Virus record (IMG/VR): IMGVR_UViG_2778261619_000010
Coordinates: 1-21,065 of that record
Reading direction: 5' to 3' (one strand)
DNA length: 21,065 nt
From: a virus
Taxonomy: Duplodnaviria; Heunggongvirae; Uroviricota; Caudoviricetes
Made by a program: the position numbers and the translations under genes. The notes beneath the pieces were generated by a model. It searched no databases and was not told the DNA's origin. It was given only the letters and a program-made list of their open reading frames with translations. Below, one piece after another: positions 1-8,160 of this stretch (position 1 is its first letter; each line of letters starts with the position of its first letter).

Positions 1-1017
1 ATGAGCAGTGTAAGGACAGACAAGTTCATTAGGTATGGTTTTGCGGTTGTGGCGATAGTTGCCATACTCATTACTACTATCACAACCCCCAATCCCACAC
101 CTTATCAATATATAGTTTACCGAATAGTTCTGGCTCTGGCTGCCGGATGTATTGGTGCAGTTCTGCCTGGTTTCCTTGAAGTAAAATTTAATGGGTGGTT
201 AAGAGCATCTGGCGCAGTGGCGATCTTCGCTATAGTGTTTTTCATAAGCCCAGATTTGCTTCAACAAAATCCTGAATCTGCAAGTAAACCTGTACCGCCT
301 ACTGTGATTGATGCATATGCCGTTAATAGTTCCAATCGCGACAGATACCTCGAATTATTTCGAACAGGACAGTTCGGTCAGCGGGACAAGCTGCGCATCG
401 GTTGTGTTGAGTGGAGTGAATCATCGTGCGTGGCTGCTGGTAATTTTTTGCGATTGTTAAGCGAAGCTGGCTGGGAAATCGATTCTGACGCTGTATTCAG
501 AATGCAACCATCCGTGCCAGTTGAGGGGGTATCGATTGTAAGCCGTGGCGATGATCTGGTCGGTTTGCCAAAAGTACCACCCCACATGGGCCGTTGGAGT
601 CGATCAGACATTAGTTATGAAATTTTGACAGCGGCATTTAAATTGATGGGAGTTCCGGTTTATTTTTCCAGTGACCCGACATTACAACCAGGTACTACCG
701 GAGTGTACTTTGGACCGAAACCGAAACTGGATGCACCAGTCATGCAAAAAGATGAGAATGTGCGACGTGAGCTTCTCCGCTACGTCGGTTTGGGAATGAC
801 TATTCAGCGAGCCTGCTCTCAGCAGCCCGTCGAACTTTGTGGGGGTGAAATCTTTTCCTGGGAAACGTCGGTATCTTCGTTCCTAAGGCAGCAGAGATTC
901 AACTCCGATGCCGTAAACAGATGGCTTGCCTTGCCGCAGGTTAATGCGGCTTCGGCAACTGCAGACATGAAAATAAAGCTAGATTTGTTAATGTCATTTG
1001 TTCTGGGCATCGAGTAA
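1..1017 (+). CDS. membrane-anchored protein of unknown function (about three N-terminal TM helices, then a ~250-aa soluble domain)
   Basis: 338-aa ORF with ATG at position 1, so the true start may lie upstream of the window. Three hydrophobic stretches at roughly residues 12-29, 37-59 and 67-84, followed by a non-hydrophobic C-terminal region with no motif I recognise. Confidence 0.5.
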   Translation: MSSVRTDKFIRYGFAVVAIVAILITTITTPNPTPYQYIVYRIVLALAAGCIGAVLPGFLEVKFNGWLRASGAVAIFAIVFFISPDLLQQNPESASKPVPPTVIDAYAVNSSNRDRYLELFRTGQFGQRDKLRIGCVEWSESSCVAAGNFLRLLSEAGWEIDSDAVFRMQPSVPVEGVSIVSRGDDLVGLPKVPPHMGRWSRSDISYEILTAAFKLMGVPVYFSSDPTLQPGTTGVYFGPKPKLDAPVMQKDENVRRELLRYVGLGMTIQRACSQQPVELCGGEIFSWETSVSSFLRQQRFNSDAVNRWLALPQVNAASATADMKIKLDLLMSFVLGIE

Positions 1018-1660
1018 CTATACCTCTTGCGAGGATGATTGAGCGTCTAATGGACCAGCTTAGCCGTTAGCGCTATTTGTTTACGTAAGCCTGTGGAATC
1101 CAACTAGTGCTTCTACGATGCGTTGTTTGGTGAAAAAAAAGTGTTGAAGCACTGGTTTTAGACAACTAAAGCCACGATTTGCTCATGCGTCGAAAATGTA
1201 GTCGTCTACTGTGTAGCACGGAGGCGATATTCGTACGCTTACACTTGCCGATAGGCCACTGGGGAGTGTTCTTGGCACTAAGCTGCCAGGCCCGAAGGTC
1301 TGCTATGAGCGAGGGGCTGACATTCCTATTGGCATTCGGTGTGAGTTATCGGGGGCGGTCATGCGGCATACTTCCGATACAGGCGTTTCCAGCTCTGCCT
1401 GTTTCAGGGTTATATTAATCTGCTTTAGAATTAATCGTGGCTTTAGCATCTGCACATCGTGCTGGAGAAACCTGAGTGAACTAAATCATATTCCCTTTCT
1501 TCAGCTAATCAATTGATAGTTATGCGGAAAAAGTTACTTTGCTTGTCAATAATCCATTTCACATCCGTTAATCCAATGCTATGCGTCTTCGCATTAATCT
1601 GGAAAGGTAGTAAGTGAAATAAAAACTTAGCCAATGACTAATATCTGAGGATACTTTGTC

Positions 1661-4021
1661 ATGAAAAGTATGCAATCAAAAACGGGCTCTCCACTCGTTC
1701 GAACTGAAGCCGAGCTAGAAAGCCGGCTTACTTCAGCACTAAACATAGCATTTCCTAACATTCCTCGCGAAGATCTTATCGAACAGCGCCATTTTACCGT
1801 TCGGCTAGGCCATGGAACTTACAAAATAGATAGCGCCGCACACTGGAAAAAATACGGGCGAGCGGATGTTTTGATCTTTCATCGGGAGAGACCACTTGCG
1901 GTTATTGAACTGAAACGTGAAGACCTGACACTGACCCATGATGATTATGAACAGGCTCAAAGCTACGCTAACCAGTTAACACCACGTCCGCCTCTCGTTG
2001 TAGTTACGAACGGTAAAGATACGCGCGTTTATGACTCAAGTAATGGACAACAGTGGTCGGGTGGACAGGATGCCTCGGCAGCGGTAAACAAGATGCTCGC
2101 CAATTCTGCAAAGTTGGCGGCGGCTGACATGCGCTGGGCTATTGAAGCCTTGATGGGGCGAGAAACTAATGCTTGGGTGCCAGCTGTGCGAGAAGAAACA
2201 GCCCGGCTGCTGATTGATATAACTGATCAGCCTGGGCATTCAGAACATCCATTTGCCAACAACCTACTTTTTCCTCGCAAAATCACGTCTCTTGTAATTG
2301 AATCTGCTGTGATGGGTACAGCTTTCACTATCATTGAGGGTGATGCACAAAGCGGAAAAAGCAGTTGCCTCCGTGAAATTTCGCTAAAAACGGAAAGTAG
2401 CGATCTTTTGGCTGTCCTGATGTTACGAGGTTCCGGACCAGGACTATTTCAGGCTCTGGCCAATCTTTTTGCAGCTGAATTTGAATGGAATTTAACCTCA
2501 AATGATGCACGTAACTGGTTAAGACGAATGTCTAACTGCACTGAAGGTCCATCGCTTATGCTTGCTATCGACGACGTTGAACCAGGCTCCCAAATGGCTA
2601 CTGATCTTGAGGAACTTGCGGGTATACGTTTTGGCAACAGGCTGGTGGTTGTTCTGACGACCTATCATGCCAACGCGTTACTGAAAAATCCAAACGGACG
2701 AACTCCGTCTGCAATTGGTAGCCGGTCGAAGGTATTTAAAACATCGCCTATGTCCCTAGATGAATTTAAGCTGGCGCAACAGATTCTCTCGGACCAGCGG
2801 ATAGTTTTTCAACAGGGAGCAGAATACGCCGATGACTACCGCTCGCCTTGGGTTCTTCGCACTATTTATGATGACATTGTGCGCAATCATCAATACCAGA
2901 AAACGGATCTTATCGCCTATCTTCCTCCATCACCCGGTATGGAACTTATAGATGCTGCGCAAAAGAGCTATGAGAGTCAGTATGATCTTCTTCGTTATTA
3001 TCGGGTTCTTGCACGCTGCGCACTAGCTGACACAAACTCCCACTCAGTAGAATTAATGTTTGCTAAAGCGAATGGATTTGTCGTGCGGTATGACGCACTT
3101 TCTGACGAAGCTCGTGGTGTAGTGAATGAGTTAAAACATATGGGGGCAGTTCGTATTTTTCGCCTTTCAGGATGGGAAGATGTTGTGGTGCCGACAGTTC
3201 CCGCAGCTTACCTTCTGGAACTGTCGGATGCTGTTTGTGATGAACTGGTTTTACGGGCAGAACAAGACCCTCAAGACGCCGGGGCTTGGCTTGGCGAACG
3301 GCTAGATGCCACTTATCTTGGAGATATGATCGGTGCTCAAGCCATACGCCGTATGGCAGCTAAAGAGAGATATTTCAGCTTTGGAATTATTCAGGGCCTT
3401 CTCAGCATTGAGCCATATAAAGAACCTATAAAAAACGGATTGTTTACTTTAGCCATGCCAGACAACCAACAAGTCAATCTAAAGATTGAGGATGGATTAG
3501 CGTGGATTTCTAAACACGGGGATGATGCAAAGAGTGTTCTGGTGAATTTAGAGGATCAAATCCCAAAGGTCATTTCTAAATCAACCAGTTGGATGATACT
3601 CGGGCAACTAGCGAAACTGCCGTCAGCAGAGGTGGGTGACGATGATCAGCGTATAGACGCCTATATTTTACTGAGCATTGGGCGCTGCCCATTTCCTCTA
3701 ATTCGCACGAATATAGAAGGATTGCCTTACTTTGAGCATAATTTTGGCGATCAGGGTGATGTTCTTTGCCTAGAAAAAGCGTCTATTGAAGTTGCTACTC
3801 AGGCGATGGCTGATTTATTTTCAGCCCCATGGCTCTATGCGGACCAGTGGGTGGATACAGCTATCGCGACCGGTTCTATACATTTACTGCATCGTTTGTT
3901 TGCTGCTTTAAACACAGTGATATTGCGTAGAATACCCGTGCAATCCGACTGGGCTAATGAAGCACTTAATCAACGTGTCTCACCAGCCCTTAAGGAAGCC
4001 ATACGATCATTATCTTCGTGA
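1661..4021 (+). CDS. multidomain protein: N-terminal HsdR_N/Mrr-like PD-(D/E)xK nuclease-like domain, central P-loop NTPase, large uncharacterised C-terminal region; candidate phage-defence protein
   Basis: 786-aa uninterrupted ORF, ATG preceded by GAGGA about 9 nt upstream. Residues 66-88 GRADVLIFHRERPLAVIELKRED give a D69...E83-x-K85 motif, followed by VVVTNGKDTRVYD as in HsdR N-terminal domains. Walker A GDAQSGKS (227-234) and Walker B LMLAIDDVE (299-307). No helicase DEAD/DExH motif seen. Confidence 0.6.
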   Translation: MKSMQSKTGSPLVRTEAELESRLTSALNIAFPNIPREDLIEQRHFTVRLGHGTYKIDSAAHWKKYGRADVLIFHRERPLAVIELKREDLTLTHDDYEQAQSYANQLTPRPPLVVVTNGKDTRVYDSSNGQQWSGGQDASAAVNKMLANSAKLAAADMRWAIEALMGRETNAWVPAVREETARLLIDITDQPGHSEHPFANNLLFPRKITSLVIESAVMGTAFTIIEGDAQSGKSSCLREISLKTESSDLLAVLMLRGSGPGLFQALANLFAAEFEWNLTSNDARNWLRRMSNCTEGPSLMLAIDDVEPGSQMATDLEELAGIRFGNRLVVVLTTYHANALLKNPNGRTPSAIGSRSKVFKTSPMSLDEFKLAQQILSDQRIVFQQGAEYADDYRSPWVLRTIYDDIVRNHQYQKTDLIAYLPPSPGMELIDAAQKSYESQYDLLRYYRVLARCALADTNSHSVELMFAKANGFVVRYDALSDEARGVVNELKHMGAVRIFRLSGWEDVVVPTVPAAYLLELSDAVCDELVLRAEQDPQDAGAWLGERLDATYLGDMIGAQAIRRMAAKERYFSFGIIQGLLSIEPYKEPIKNGLFTLAMPDNQQVNLKIEDGLAWISKHGDDAKSVLVNLEDQIPKVISKSTSWMILGQLAKLPSAEVGDDDQRIDAYILLSIGRCPFPLIRTNIEGLPYFEHNFGDQGDVLCLEKASIEVATQAMADLFSAPWLYADQWVDTAIATGSIHLLHRLFAALNTVILRRIPVQSDWANEALNQRVSPALKEAIRSLSS

Positions 4022-4197: not shown

Positions 4198-4497
4198 ATG
4201 ACAAAACCAGTATCAATCAGCAAGAAGCCCCGTGAACAACATTCGCCTGAATTTCGTAACGAAGCCCTGAAACTCGCTGAACGCATCGGTGTGGCCGCCG
4301 CAGCCCGTGAACTCAGCCTTTATGAATCTCAGCTTTATGCCTGGCGCAGTAAACAGCAGCAACAAATGAGTTCGTCAGAGCGCGAAAGCGAACTGGCCGC
4401 TGAAAATGTCCGCCTTAAACGACAACTGGCGGAGCAGGCTGAGGAACTGGCCATCCTCCAAAAGGCCGCGACATACTTCGCGAATCGCCTGAAATGA
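4198..4497 (+). CDS. insE: IS3 transposase OrfA (HTH and leucine-zipper part)
   Basis: 99-aa product [31 protein letters not shown]...[16 protein letters not shown], near-identical in pattern to IS3 OrfA as I recall it. Confidence 0.85.
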
Positions 4498-5337
4498 AGT
4501 ATGTCTTCATCGAAAATCATCGGGCAGAGTTCTGCATCAAAGCGATGTGTCGTGTACTTCGGGTTGCCCGCAGCGGCTGGTATGTCTGGCTCAGGCGTCG
4601 TCACCAGATGAGCCTTCGCCAACAGTTTCGGCTCACCTGCGATGCCGCTGTCCATAAGGCATTCTTTGAGGCAAAGCAGCGGTACGGTGCTCCCCGCCTT
4701 GCTGACGAACTGCCGGAGTTCAATATTAAAACCATTGCCGCCAGCCTGCGTCGTCAGGGGCTGCGGGCGAAAGTTCAGCCCGGTCAGCTACCGTGCACAT
4801 GGCCTGCCCGTATTGGAGAATCTGCTGGAGCAGGACTTCAGCGCCAGAGGCCCGAACCAGAAGTGGGCGGGTGACATCACGTACTTGCGTACCGATGAGG
4901 GCTGGTTGTATCTCGCAGTAGTCATCGACCTGTGGTCACGCGCCGTCATTGGCTGGTCGATGTCACCGCGAATGACAGCACAACTGGCCTGTGATGCACT
5001 ACAAATGGCGTTGTGGCGGAGAAGACGCCCGGAAAGCGTCATTGTTCATACGGACCGTGGTGGTCAATACTGTTCAGGGGATTATCAGGCGCTGCTGAAG
5101 CGACACAACCTGCGTGGCAGTATGAGTGCGAAAGGCTACTGTTATGACAATGCCTGTGTGGAAAGCTTCTTTCATTCGCTGAAGGTGGAATGTATCCACG
5201 GGGAACGCTTTAGCAGCCGGGAAATAATGCGGGCAACGGTGTTTAATTATATCGAGTGTGATTACAATCGCTGGCGTCGTCACAGTGCCTGTGGCGGTCT
5301 CAGCCCGGAACAATTTGAAAACCATAATCTCGCTTAG
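4494..5337 (+). pseudogene. insF: IS3 transposase OrfB (DDE catalytic domain), split by an internal frameshift
   Basis: OrfB begins in the -1 frame overlapping the orfA stop (ATGA) as expected, but the reading frame changes again near 4760-4780. Two overlapping ORFs (4494-4874 and 4642-5337) together carry OrfB sequence (...[10 protein letters not shown] then [14 protein letters not shown]...DRGGQYCS...). Consistent with a short deletion inside orfB, so this IS copy is probably transposition-defective by itself. Confidence 0.65.
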
Positions 5338-5367
5338 GGCCGTGTCCACATTACGTGGGTAGGTTCA

Positions 5368-5490
5368 ATTTTCCTGATGACCCCATCGACATAGTATTTT
5401 TTCAAAGCAAGAATTGCCTTCTCGCTATGTATTCCTGATAGCTTGATCAGGATATCAAAGTCTCTTTCAGATATATTCCCCTTTGTCATG
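5368..5490 (-). pseudogene. 5' part of a small minus-strand ORF interrupted by the IS3 insertion
   Basis: ATG at 5490 with GGAG 5 nt upstream on the minus strand. 41 codons (MTKGNISERDFDILIKLSGIHSEKAILALKKYYVDGVIRK...) run directly into the IS3 right terminus. An in-frame continuation exists on the other side of IS3 (minus strand, about 3965-4134) if a 3-bp target duplication is assumed. Confidence 0.35.
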
Positions 5491-6058
5491 TGTCACTCCA
5501 TGAATCAAATTTCATAGTAATCAATCTTTCTTTGATCGACTTATAGATAATAAGATCAGAAATGATAAAAAAGTAACGTATATTTCTTCTCGTCATGTCT
5601 ACTTATAAAATTCAAATGAACTAACCTGAACTACTTACACTGGAATATCATTATATTGGAATAATTATAAAACTGAACAAAATGGTCAATGTAATCTGGT
5701 TAATTTATAAATATTTACATTGCGTGATGATATTTAATTCCAGTGTTAAGTAATGTCACATGCCTATTATTGGTTACTACTTTGTAGGTGTTTTGGTTCG
5801 GCGTTAATATCATTGGTCATAATCACCTGTGAAAGTTTATTCTTGAAATGTAATAGGTATATTACTTGCAATTAAAAATGAGAAATTTATTATTATTGTG
5901 TTTTGCAAATATAATAATTAAAAATTTATTATAAATTATGATTAGAATTGACAATATAAAAGAATAATAAAACTCAATATGAAAATAATTATCATCTGGT
6001 TTGATACTTTTGCTGTTGATTACAGGAATAAAGTGTCAGAATAATATTGTTATTGGGT

Positions 6059-6086
6059 AAAAAAAGCCTCCACTATATGTGGAGGC
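6059..6086 (-). terminator. rho-independent terminator-like hairpin (minus strand)
   Basis: Perfect 8-bp stem GCCTCCAC/GTGGAGGC with a 5-nt loop; on the minus strand it is followed by a run of 7 T. Confidence 0.5.
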
Positions 6087-6678
6087 AAACCCTTAGATAG
6101 TTCTATTGAGGCAAGTATGTTATAAATCTGCCTTATCTTTTATAGCATATAAAGATATGTATGCTATATTTTTTTTGAAGAAATTTTTCCAGAAATTACA
6201 GTAATACAAGAAATATTAACTGGTGTGATTTTTGGATGTTTAATAAGTACAGTGTACTTATATTTTTGTAATAAAGATGAACGCCTCCTTTAGATAAACT
6301 GAAAAATATTAAGCATGTCTCATGTGGTTTTCTGAATCAAAACTCTTTTCAGTCTTTGATTTTTTGTTAAAAACAGGTTTATTGCAAGGGTGTTGTTGTG
6401 AAATGTGTTTTGGTGTCGTTGTGATTTTATGGTGATAATGTGAATTTTTATCCTTTCAAGATGGCTCCCTGGACGTTAAATACAGTGGAAATTTATATTA
6501 AGATATAAATATAACTATTGCGTTATTTAAATTATTGTCTATTACAGCTCCAGTTAATAGAGCCTGAAGTAATTTCTTAGTATTTCATCATAAGCGTTTA
6601 TCTATCGTCTCTTTCTAAATTAACCGGTCGTATTACAAGGTGCTGAATCTGATTAAGGAATGATACTTAGGGGATTAT

Positions 6679-6739
6679 GGCTGACTTAATAATTAGATAA
6701 CTGATAAATGACTATCAGGGGGATATCGTTAAGTCAGCC
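6679..6739. repeat. nested inverted repeat immediately downstream of the integrase stop
   Basis: Perfect 11-bp arms GGCTGACTTAA (6679-6689) and TTAAGTCAGCC (6729-6739) enclosing an inner palindrome CTGATA...TATCAG (6701-6718). No adjacent T-run. Confidence 0.55.
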
Positions 6740-6754
6740 TTTAAAATCAAGCGA

Positions 6755-7945
6755 TTATATAGCTGGTGACTCTTTTCGAAGAGCATCAAGGTAGTCAGCG
6801 TACCATTGCATCATTTCTCGTCTTCCTTCAAGGTAACGAGCATGGTTGTATGTACCACGAATGCTGTTTTTGTCCGTATGTGCAAGTTGCATTTCAATCC
6901 ATGCACTATTGAATCCTTGCTCGTGTAGAACAGTACTCATTGTATGACGAAATCCATGCCCGGTAGCTTTTTTGTCATAGCCAATCTTCTTCAAAACCAT
7001 ATTGACGCTTGCATCGCTGATAGGCCTGTTAACATCATTTCTTCCGGCAAAGATGTATCTGTATCTTCCAGTCAGTTCTTTGAGGATTTGCAGAGACTGG
7101 ATTGCCTGATCTGACAGAGGGACGATATGCTCCTTCCTCATTTTCATCCGGGTCGGAGGAACTTCCCATATCTTTTGGGTAAAATCGATCTCACACCATT
7201 CCCCCATACGTAATTCTACTGTTCTCAGCCCTGTGAGCATCAACAATTTTGTAGCTTCACGGGTTACAATACTGCCGGTGTAGTTTTCGAGTTTGTATAA
7301 AAACTCTGGTAGTTCAGGAGGAAGCAGGAAAGGGTAATGTGTTCGCTTATAGCTTTTCATTGCTATAACCAGATCAGAAGCTGGATTGTATCGTGCCCGA
7401 CCTGTAACAATGGCATACCGAAACACTTCACCACATCGTTGGCGAACTTTATTAGCTAGCTCGCAGGCTCCTCGGCTTTCGATACGCTGAAGAACTGCGA
7501 GAAGTTCAAGAGGTTCGATTTCACTAATGGGTCTGTTTCCAATGTAGGGAAACACATTATTTTTGAATGCTCTGTCGACATAATCAGCGTAGCTGGCAGA
7601 CCAGCCTGAAACTTTTGCGTTGTACCACTCGGTGGCGATTGCGGCAAAAGTTCTTCCTTCGGAAAGGTTTTTCTCAAGATTTTCAGCTTTCTTGACTTCA
7701 CCGGGATCTTTACCATCGGCATGTATTTTCTTGGCTTCATCCCGACGTTTGCGAGCTTCAGCCAATGTAATAGTTGGATAGGTGCCAAATGATAGTTTCT
7801 TTTCCTTCCCCGCATAGTGGTACTTCATTCGCCAGTACTTTGAGCCGTTAGGATTGACCTGAAGGTAGAGCCCACCACCATCGGCAATCTTATAAATTTT
7901 ATCTTTGGGTTTGGCTGTTTCAACTTGTCGAGCTGTCAGTGGCAT
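6755..7945 (-). CDS. int: P4-family (IntS/CP4-57-like) tyrosine integrase
   Basis: N-terminus MPLTARQVETAKPKDKIYKIADGGGLYLQVNPNGSKYWRMKY... is typical of P4-type integrases. C-terminal HGFRHT and IRGTYNHARYLEGRREMMQW supply the HxxR and catalytic Tyr. The ORF-track start at 7972 is a TTG; the ATG at 7945 is the more likely start. Confidence 0.9.
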   Translation of the reverse strand: MPLTARQVETAKPKDKIYKIADGGGLYLQVNPNGSKYWRMKYHYAGKEKKLSFGTYPTITLAEARKRRDEAKKIHADGKDPGEVKKAENLEKNLSEGRTFAAIATEWYNAKVSGWSASYADYVDRAFKNNVFPYIGNRPISEIEPLELLAVLQRIESRGACELANKVRQRCGEVFRYAIVTGRARYNPASDLVIAMKSYKRTHYPFLLPPELPEFLYKLENYTGSIVTREATKLLMLTGLRTVELRMGEWCEIDFTQKIWEVPPTRMKMRKEHIVPLSDQAIQSLQILKELTGRYRYIFAGRNDVNRPISDASVNMVLKKIGYDKKATGHGFRHTMSTVLHEQGFNSAWIEMQLAHTDKNSIRGTYNHARYLEGRREMMQWYADYLDALRKESPAI

Positions 7946-8120
7946 CTGGGGGCCTCGCAATAGATTGACCAAGATGTGCCCCTAAATAGGCCCCCAAATG
8001 TGACTTGATTTACGTTCCCCTGAGGAGAATTAAGGCGACTATTTGAGTAACATAAGTAAGGGTATGTGCTGATTATAAAGGCTTTTTGTGGGGTATGGTA
8101 GATTTCAGGAGAGGTGTGCA

Positions 8121-8160
8121 TGGTGTCCGAATAGGGAATCGAACCTGCAAATCAGGCAAG
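8121..8160 (-). other. tRNA 3'-end-like sequence (candidate att core or remnant), not a functional tRNA
   Basis: Minus strand reads ...TTGCAGGTTCGATTCCCTATTCGGACACCA: a T-loop motif GGTTCGATTCC and a terminal CCA resembling the 3' end of tRNA-Arg/Thr genes as I recall them, but the T-stem cannot pair and no D or anticodon arm lies upstream. Confidence 0.4.

Follow-up and report, generated by a model that had tools for sequence, protein, structure and literature searches.

What is more than a kilobase of gene-free DNA doing between an integrase gene and an insertion sequence? The question is raised by positions 5491-6754 of a 21,065-nucleotide stretch recorded as a virus of the Caudoviricetes (IMG/VR record IMGVR_UViG_2778261619_000010; this whole stretch is hereafter the window), where the region, with an IS3-family pseudogene to its left and an integrase gene to its right, had been described from the letters alone as about 1.3 kb of AT-rich DNA free of open reading frames (ORFs). 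This description holds, as the region has a GC content of 28.0% against 46.9% across the entire window, contains no ORF of at least 60 amino acids (aa), and has a longest listed ORF of 40 aa. The scarcity of ORFs is in itself uninformative, because shuffles of equal composition give equally long or longer stop-free runs (57 codons at most in the region, 68.7 +/- 12.6 in dinucleotide shuffles). No tRNA gene was found by a tRNA scan, and Pfam and NCBIfam searches of the six-frame translations returned a fragment of a PapB-type regulator as their sole match.

The answer that we favour, at a probability of roughly 0.55, is that 5491-6754 is an ancestral non-coding control region of a genomic island at the tRNA-Arg gene argW, which was orphaned by the IS3 insertion and which holds a terminator module kept by selection, a candidate for a small RNA. 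The spacer, its conserved modules and the competing explanations of the module are taken up in turn below.

The spacer and its island

Intact islands of E. coli (L103-L114, L119) and Salmonella enterica (L090-L094) carry 1.2-1.27 kb without a called gene between the integrase gene and a gene for a PapB-like regulator. Because the islands of both species share this ORF-free gap of about 1.2 kb, the spacer is, on this comparison, ancestral and not decayed cargo, and the original prediction of decayed cargo or a once-coding region here is not sustained. Across 55 loci with related integrases in other species, the next ORF starts a median of 208 bp past the integrase gene, and the gap reaches at least 1 kb in one of the 55. 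The Salmonella gene order is yfdC, argW, integrase (90% nucleotide identity), 1.2-kb ORF-free spacer, PapB-like gene and AraC-family regulator, whilst the complete E. coli genome Eco_23-2667 (L119:13424-33341) holds the whole island, with integrase, spacer, PapB-like gene and a Rob-like helix-turn-helix regulator, followed by a 1311-aa serine-protease autotransporter on the other strand and K88-like fimbrial genes.

The features that bound the spacer in the window are as follows.

4198-5367, plus strand: IS3-family element with a frameshifted transposase, whose right end cuts the PapB-like gene (seen in its ORFs; identical loci are annotated in RefSeq as 'IS3 family transposase, frameshifted')
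5334-5489, minus strand: truncated gene for a PapB/FocB-family regulator, with native codons 1-40 at 5489-5368 and the last 11 codons from the IS3 end
6755-7945, minus strand: P4-type tyrosine integrase of the argW island, 396 aa (RefSeq WP_001131472; Pfam Arm-DNA-bind_3 and Phage_integrase)

The ORF at 5334-5489 matches Pfam PapB over positions 9-57 of 91 (E = 3e-10; 40.4 bits, cut-off 29.4). A word-indexed protein search with this fragment returned 12 close relatives, all of which stop at about residue 40; an exhaustive HMMER search led to an intact PapB-like protein of 76 aa (P0014). The contigs encoding it are from Salmonella enterica, with flanking core genes 80-85% identical to those of E. 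coli, and intact E. coli copies of the gene were also found (P0018, P0019). Homology to the intact islands ends at window position 5368, and the alignment indicates that IS3 took away the cargo past codon 40 of this gene and left the contents of the spacer in place.

The original prediction placed this DNA in a prophage. We find instead that integrase gene, spacer and PapB fragment are all parts of a genomic island at argW that stands in tandem with the prophage, and no part of the latter, because the integrase gene lies beside argW in phage-free strains, the prophage of strain E10 has its own intS, and window positions 7900-8128 match the island. Specifically, the integrase gene directly adjoins tRNA-Arg (argW) and yfdC in strains AMSCJX02, 488 and R1, and the protein WP_001131472 is encoded next to tRNA-Arg in strains without the prophage, whilst in E10 a P22-like prophage with intS and gtrABS separates argW from the integrase gene. 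Positions 7900-8128 are identical to the DNA upstream of the island integrase, and a partial argW 3' end at 8135-8150 is followed by phage DNA. This corrects the annotation context of both integrase and spacer, which belong to the argW island and not to the adjacent prophage; the further suggestion that the region is foreign DNA was right, in that it sits within a genomic island. The tandem array at argW (window 7973-8150 and rightwards) comprises the attachment side of the island, the partial argW 3' end and the P22-like prophage.

A stretch of 1.46 kb around the region is present as a single copy per genome in 242 of 5426 complete E. coli genomes, all of them chromosomal, with an identity of at least 99% in 225 of the 242. 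The spacer DNA has no relatives among plasmids and phages, the sole 'plasmid' match being a 1.4-Mb E. coli replicon with the same locus, and neither blastn nor nhmmer found a match to it in 79 related-integrase loci of other species. Three side observations concern the island at large. The intact form is rare (1 of 5426 complete genomes), the K88-like fimbrial cluster of Eco_23-2667 includes a second PapB-family gene, and no description of an argW island variant with autotransporter and K88-like fimbriae was found in the literature searched. In E. coli O26:H11 11368 (L002:10416-11606) the annotation gives the island integrase as a pseudogene, interrupted by an internal stop, and the sole difference between this strain and the window in the integrase gene is 7280 G>T. 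The cargo that replaces the virulence genes (window 1-4021; L001:1-7682; L004:5695-16020) looks like a defence island, with a TerB-family protein, an ATPase, a DEAD/DEAH helicase, a hypothetical protein and a 786-aa protein with an HsdR N-terminal domain.

Conserved modules in a variable spacer

Three lineages of the spacer were compared: A, the window type; B, Salmonella; and C, a second E. coli type. Whole-spacer identity is 0.57 for A-B, 0.55 for A-C and 0.79 for B-C, and synonymous sites of the integrase gene in A and B served as calibration (proportion of differing synonymous sites pS = 0.246; synonymous divergence dS 0.30, non-synonymous divergence dN 0.024). From the integrase stop leftwards, the features of the spacer are these.

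6754-6672, minus strand: integrase 3' flank segment; identity A-B 0.70, A-C 0.65, B-C 0.82
6635-6754, minus strand: integrase 3' flank in common with sister islands, found at 89% identity in 29 further E. coli genomes whose cargo differs
6739-6679, minus strand: hairpin directly after the integrase stop, with an 11-bp stem GGCTGACTTAA/TTAAGTCAGCC, an inner hairpin and no U-tract
6219-6671, no strand assigned: variable AT-rich segment 1, including the GT/CA tract; identity A-B 0.39, A-C 0.38, B-C 0.71
6375-6451, no strand assigned: low-complexity tract, GT-rich on the plus and CA-rich on the minus strand; in lineage A a hot spot of polymorphism, with 12 sites where 4.8 are expected (P = 0.004)
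6218-6176, minus strand: block d, starting with a conserved -10-like TAATAT at 6218-6213; identity A-B 0.84, A-C 0.84, B-C 0.95
6143-6059, minus strand: block e plus terminator; identity A-B 0.89, A-C 0.90, B-C 0.98
6087-6143, minus strand: conserved non-coding block e; identity of A to B and C 90-91%, B-C 97%
6059-6086, minus strand: predicted intrinsic terminator GCCTCCAC-ATATA-GTGGAGGC followed by T7 (stem 6086-6079/6073-6066, T7 6065-6059)
5742-6058, no strand assigned: variable segment 2, about 24% GC, essentially unalignable; identity A-B 0.49, A-C 0.46, B-C 0.68
5741-5597, minus strand: conserved promoter and leader of the PapB-like operon, in which two TATAAT hexamers (5669-5664 and 5655-5650) are invariant; identity A-B 0.72, A-C 0.72, B-C 0.92
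5596-5490, minus strand: segment of the 36-codon ORF; identity A-B 0.90, A-C 0.92, B-C 0.94
5486-5596, minus strand: upstream ORF of 36 codons (MTRRNIRYFFIISDLIIYKSIKERLITMKFDSWSDT), intact in the three lineages, whose stop overlaps the PapB-like ATG (ATGA)

Identity in the variable segments is at or near that of unrelated AT-rich DNA. The spacer is thereby shown, at the level of aligned sequence, to be a fast-evolving AT-rich matrix with four conserved modules, namely the integrase 3' hairpin, a block of about 85 nt ending in the terminator, the PapB-like promoter/leader and the 36-codon ORF. Most of the spacer outside these modules is unalignable across the three lineages. Strain 488 (L007) differs from the window at 14 positions within spacer 5491-6754 and at none within the 1.2-kb integrase gene (6755-7972); judged by this pair, the AT-rich matrix changes, by evolution or recombination, faster than the adjoining integrase gene.

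The terminator is central to our argument. A strong minus-strand hairpin at 6059-6086, some 700 bp past the integrase stop, had been proposed and is confirmed as an 8-bp stem with six G-C pairs, a 5-nt loop and a free energy of -14.6 kcal/mol, lying 669 nt past the stop. Lineages A, B and C have the same stems, with a loop that varies (ATATA vs ATCTT) and a T-run kept at 6-8 T. Because the stem is identical in three lineages whose flanks have diverged past alignment, the terminator is beyond chance, and we predict that it is very probably functional. Block e and terminator together show 10 differences in 87 columns against the 24.6% expected from integrase synonymous sites (binomial P = 0.002-0.003), and a second conserved block of 43 nt, block d, lies about 35 nt upstream of block e. 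By this measure about 160 nt of the 1.26 kb are singled out as under selection, and the conservation of the terminator with some 60 nt upstream fits a minus-strand transcript ending there.

Nothing in the block argues for a protein. On the minus strand block e has stops in all three frames; in Salmonella the plus strand has an ORF of 33 aa that starts in the terminator loop, which a nonsense change and an indel disrupt in lineage A, and a minus-strand ORF of 29 aa (6120-6209) is interrupted in lineage B, where TGG reads TGA. From metagenome and viral contigs, exact 18-21-mers of block e retrieved nothing but the same E. coli locus. Between blocks d and e, at window 6140-6165, lineage A has a palindrome, ATAGCATA-N10-TATGCTAT, with T8 after it on the plus strand; lineages B and C carry a palindrome of their own in the same interval (AATTGATATCAATT; L090 about 7290-7303), which may indicate a hairpin or binding site perhaps conserved in form and not in sequence.

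The other modules flank this block. The hairpin after the integrase stop folds with z = -4.9 as RNA and shows one compensatory change, C-G to U-A, between lineages; only the last 120 bp or so of the spacer (6635-6754) are shared with the sister island. At the opposite end, lineage A has TTGACC at 5689-5684 of the PapB-like promoter region, which also includes an invariant AATGTAAATATTTATAAATTA (around 5722-5701) and a promoter-like match TTGACC-17-AATTAT. The 36-codon ORF, which lacks a RefSeq annotation, has a dN/dS of 0.24-0.45, and its synonymous and non-synonymous changes differ with a Fisher P of 0.03; the counts are small, and this is suggestive only of coding constraint. The 36-aa peptide found no relatives by tblastn among plasmids.

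The GT-rich tract proved to be of a different nature. GT-rich degenerate repeats with TGTGA-type motifs had been reported at 6381-6440; the base bias stands, as G+T makes up 49 of the 60 bases against 42.6 +/- 1.8 in shuffles, but the repeats do not, with TGTGA present 5 times where 2.3 +/- 1.4 are expected (P = 0.08). No repeat at 6381-6440 was detected by Tandem Repeats Finder or by a general repeat search, and by eye three loose units of about 21 nt, GGTG...TGTGA, can be picked out at 6389, 6412 and 6431. We considered the TGTGA motifs as CRP-type sites or iterons and rejected this, the motifs being no more frequent than chance and the tract a polymorphism hot spot; a role as functional sites sits badly with a tract that evolves faster than any other part of the spacer. 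At the matching distance from the integrase stop (about 310-350 nt) the Salmonella relatives have (CCAAA)n, in 7, 10, 5, 4 and 5 copies in five genomes (L090-L094; L090:7105-7139) that otherwise differ by two single-nucleotide polymorphisms in 2.6 kb, whilst lineage C has no repeat at this position. The Salmonella repeat could be of the contingency type, and the tract in the window is best read as slippage-prone low-complexity DNA, degenerate here, and not as a set of conserved binding sites.

What the terminator module may do

We propose that the region is the control region between the island integrase gene and the first cargo operon, which in intact islands runs from the 36-codon ORF through the 76-aa PapB-like regulator to the Rob/AraC-like regulator, with the serine-protease autotransporter and the K88-like fimbrial genes beyond, and that an IS3-family insertion orphaned it by removing everything past codon 40 of the PapB-like gene. 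Block e and the terminator would form the 3' end of a short minus-strand non-coding transcript, ending at about 6059-6063 and starting between about 6205 and 6109, hence 50-150 nt long, which could be either a stand-alone small RNA or a processed tail of transcripts that read through from the integrase gene. The terminator would, in intact islands, also shield the PapB-like promoter and operon from argW and integrase transcription. By likeness to pap-type regulatory regions, the AT-rich matrix is probably bound by H-NS; such binding, predicted from AT content alone, is plausible; matches to the high-affinity H-NS motif TCGATAAATT, with up to 2 mismatches allowed, show no enrichment, 4 of the 32 in the window falling in the region.

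It is a tentative proposal, one that we would sooner bet against than for, that blocks d and e with the terminator are the minus-strand gene (about 6059-6218) of an undescribed small RNA of the island, which purifying selection would maintain in E. coli and Salmonella alike. Candidate starts may be provided by two conserved but weak -10-like hexamers, TAATAT at 6218-6213 and TAACAT at 6122-6117, which have poor -35 elements and imply RNAs of about 146 and 50 nt. No description of an RNA or regulatory element in the spacer was found in the literature searched.

Several results count against the proposal. No conserved minus-strand sigma-70 promoter with at least 9 of 12 matches was found upstream of block e, and the number of polymorphic sites in block e within lineage A, 2 against 5.2 expected, is not significant. 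A search of the window and the Salmonella spacer against Rfam 15, at gathering and permissive thresholds, gave nothing at threshold (the best match, Arrc14, scores 31 bits against a gathering score of 99 and is driven by the terminator). Block e shows no covariation, its sequence being near-invariant; the fold common to the three lineages of the 147-150-nt candidate comprises the terminator only, and the opposite strand folds equally well or better. An RNA duplex search against neighbouring 5' untranslated regions yielded nothing above shuffles. In addition, lineages B and C have a promoter-like TAGACA-17-TATGTT on the opposite strand within block e, so the block could act at the DNA level, and the spacer is dispensable for the integrase, because sister islands lack it altogether.

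A passive role is a real, if minority, possibility. The module would then be an insulator or the distal terminator of the integrase mRNA, halting read-through from argW and the integrase gene ahead of the PapB-like promoter, without a separate small RNA, and the 60 nt or so upstream would be DNA sites for island regulators or nucleoid proteins. The terminator does share its strand with the integrase and PapB-like genes, between which it lies, no conserved promoter precedes it, and read-through is plausible, as the integrase 3' hairpin has no U-tract. However, a stem and a U-run suffice for a terminator, which leaves unexplained the 57 nt upstream at 90% identity and the second block 35 nt further on. 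The integrase genes of related islands, moreover, usually have a structured 3' end of their own, the first 90 nt past the gene often forming a clear terminator (z below -2 in 25 of 47 loci), and here the 6679-6739 hairpin occupies that place.

We think it improbable that block e is instead the promoter or operator of a plus-strand transcript antisense to integrase read-through, with the terminator adjacent by chance. The hexamers noted above in lineages B and C have a counterpart in lineage A, TAGATA-16-TATGTT. Yet the changes hit the -35 hexamer and the spacer length and leave the spacer sequence invariant, the opposite of what promoter-only constraint would give; no conserved ORF or element lies downstream on the plus strand, and promoter-like matches are no commoner than in shuffles.

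It is very improbable that the stretch was left behind by the decay of one or more genes, even though in related integrase islands a gene normally follows within about 200 bp and a Shine-Dalgarno-like AAGGAGG, without a start codon, occurs on the minus strand at 6291-6285. The spacer is free of ORFs in three lineages about 0.3 apart in dS, its six frames give no Pfam or NCBIfam signal, and it has no DNA similarity to any plasmid, phage or related-integrase locus searched; AAGGAGG reads AAGGACG in most other copies, and was rejected as not conserved.

A phase-variation switch for fimbrial or adhesin cargo, whether of the Pap-type Dam/Lrp, fimS-type invertible or repeat-length kind, is scarcely credible and for this window largely refuted: a PapB-family gene lies downstream, GATC sites occur at 5534 and 5554, a 14-nt inverted repeat (5698-5711/6612-6625) surrounds 900 bp, and (CCAAA)4-10 varies in length in the Salmonella relatives, but the two GATC sites, separated by 20 bp, fall inside the 36-codon ORF and are absent in lineages B and C, no PapI-like ORF appears in the ORF list or the six-frame Pfam search, all 237 of 237 full-length E. 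coli matches are collinear single pieces with no inverted form, neither the window nor lineage C has a tandem repeat, and the operon to be controlled is destroyed here.

Taken together, the original prediction was largely correct as an observation and partly right in its interpretation. If the candidate small RNA is real, its retention in about 4.5% of complete E. coli genomes after cargo replacement would point to a role in trans, exerted on the core genome or the integrase, and it would be a new island-encoded regulator common to E. coli and Salmonella enterica, beside the PapB-like/Rob-like pair that precedes an autotransporter protease and fimbriae. If the module is a terminator only, the finding is an ordinary one. 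In general terms, DNA that is AT-rich and without genes over a long distance can be a control region passed on by descent and not debris.

Comparison with known systems

Small RNAs of islands and prophages are known from Salmonella and enterohaemorrhagic E. coli, among them the Isr RNAs, AsxR/AgvB and Esr41. The terminator module resembles these in being short, conserved and non-coding, in lying in AT-rich acquired DNA and in having a strong terminator with U7; it differs in matching none of them in Rfam 15, in having no predicted target, and in being confined to this island family at one copy per genome. A looser resemblance is to the tI/sib element downstream of lambda int, which acts in retroregulation. 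Here too a conserved hairpin or terminator lies on the integrase strand downstream of a tyrosine integrase gene, but the terminator is 669 nt away with unconserved DNA between, the integrase is of the P4-type island class, no attachment site lies between integrase and terminator, and an extended RNase III hairpin is without support.

The upstream regions of PapB/FaeB-type fimbrial operons (papI-papB of pap; faeA-faeB of fae/K88) are AT-rich, precede a PapB-family first gene and often have insertion sequences near by, and a Pap-type Dam/Lrp switch is marked by a divergent PapI-like gene and two conserved GATC sites about 100 bp apart. The spacer is likewise very AT-rich before a PapB-family first gene, and in our reading it works as these regions do; for comparison, some 400 bp upstream of FaeB-like genes in two plasmid loci have 23-29% GC. 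In contrast to these regions, the spacer lacks a PapI/FaeA-like gene and a conserved GATC pair, is about three times longer, and includes both a terminator within it and a 36-codon ORF that is coupled to the gene for the regulator; among intact relatives on plasmids, the closest reach only 50-57% identity.

The variable argW-dsdCXA island reportedly goes back to a study by Moritz and Welch in 2006. It is a variable E. coli island at this same chromosomal hot spot (the study is cited in PMC7545054 and PMC3032704). The contents that the review lists for it (IpuA/IpuB, DsdA, GtrABV) do not include the present variant, with its P4-type integrase, PapB-like and Rob-like regulators, autotransporter and K88-like fimbriae; the hot spot and a highly strain-variable content are what the two islands have in common.

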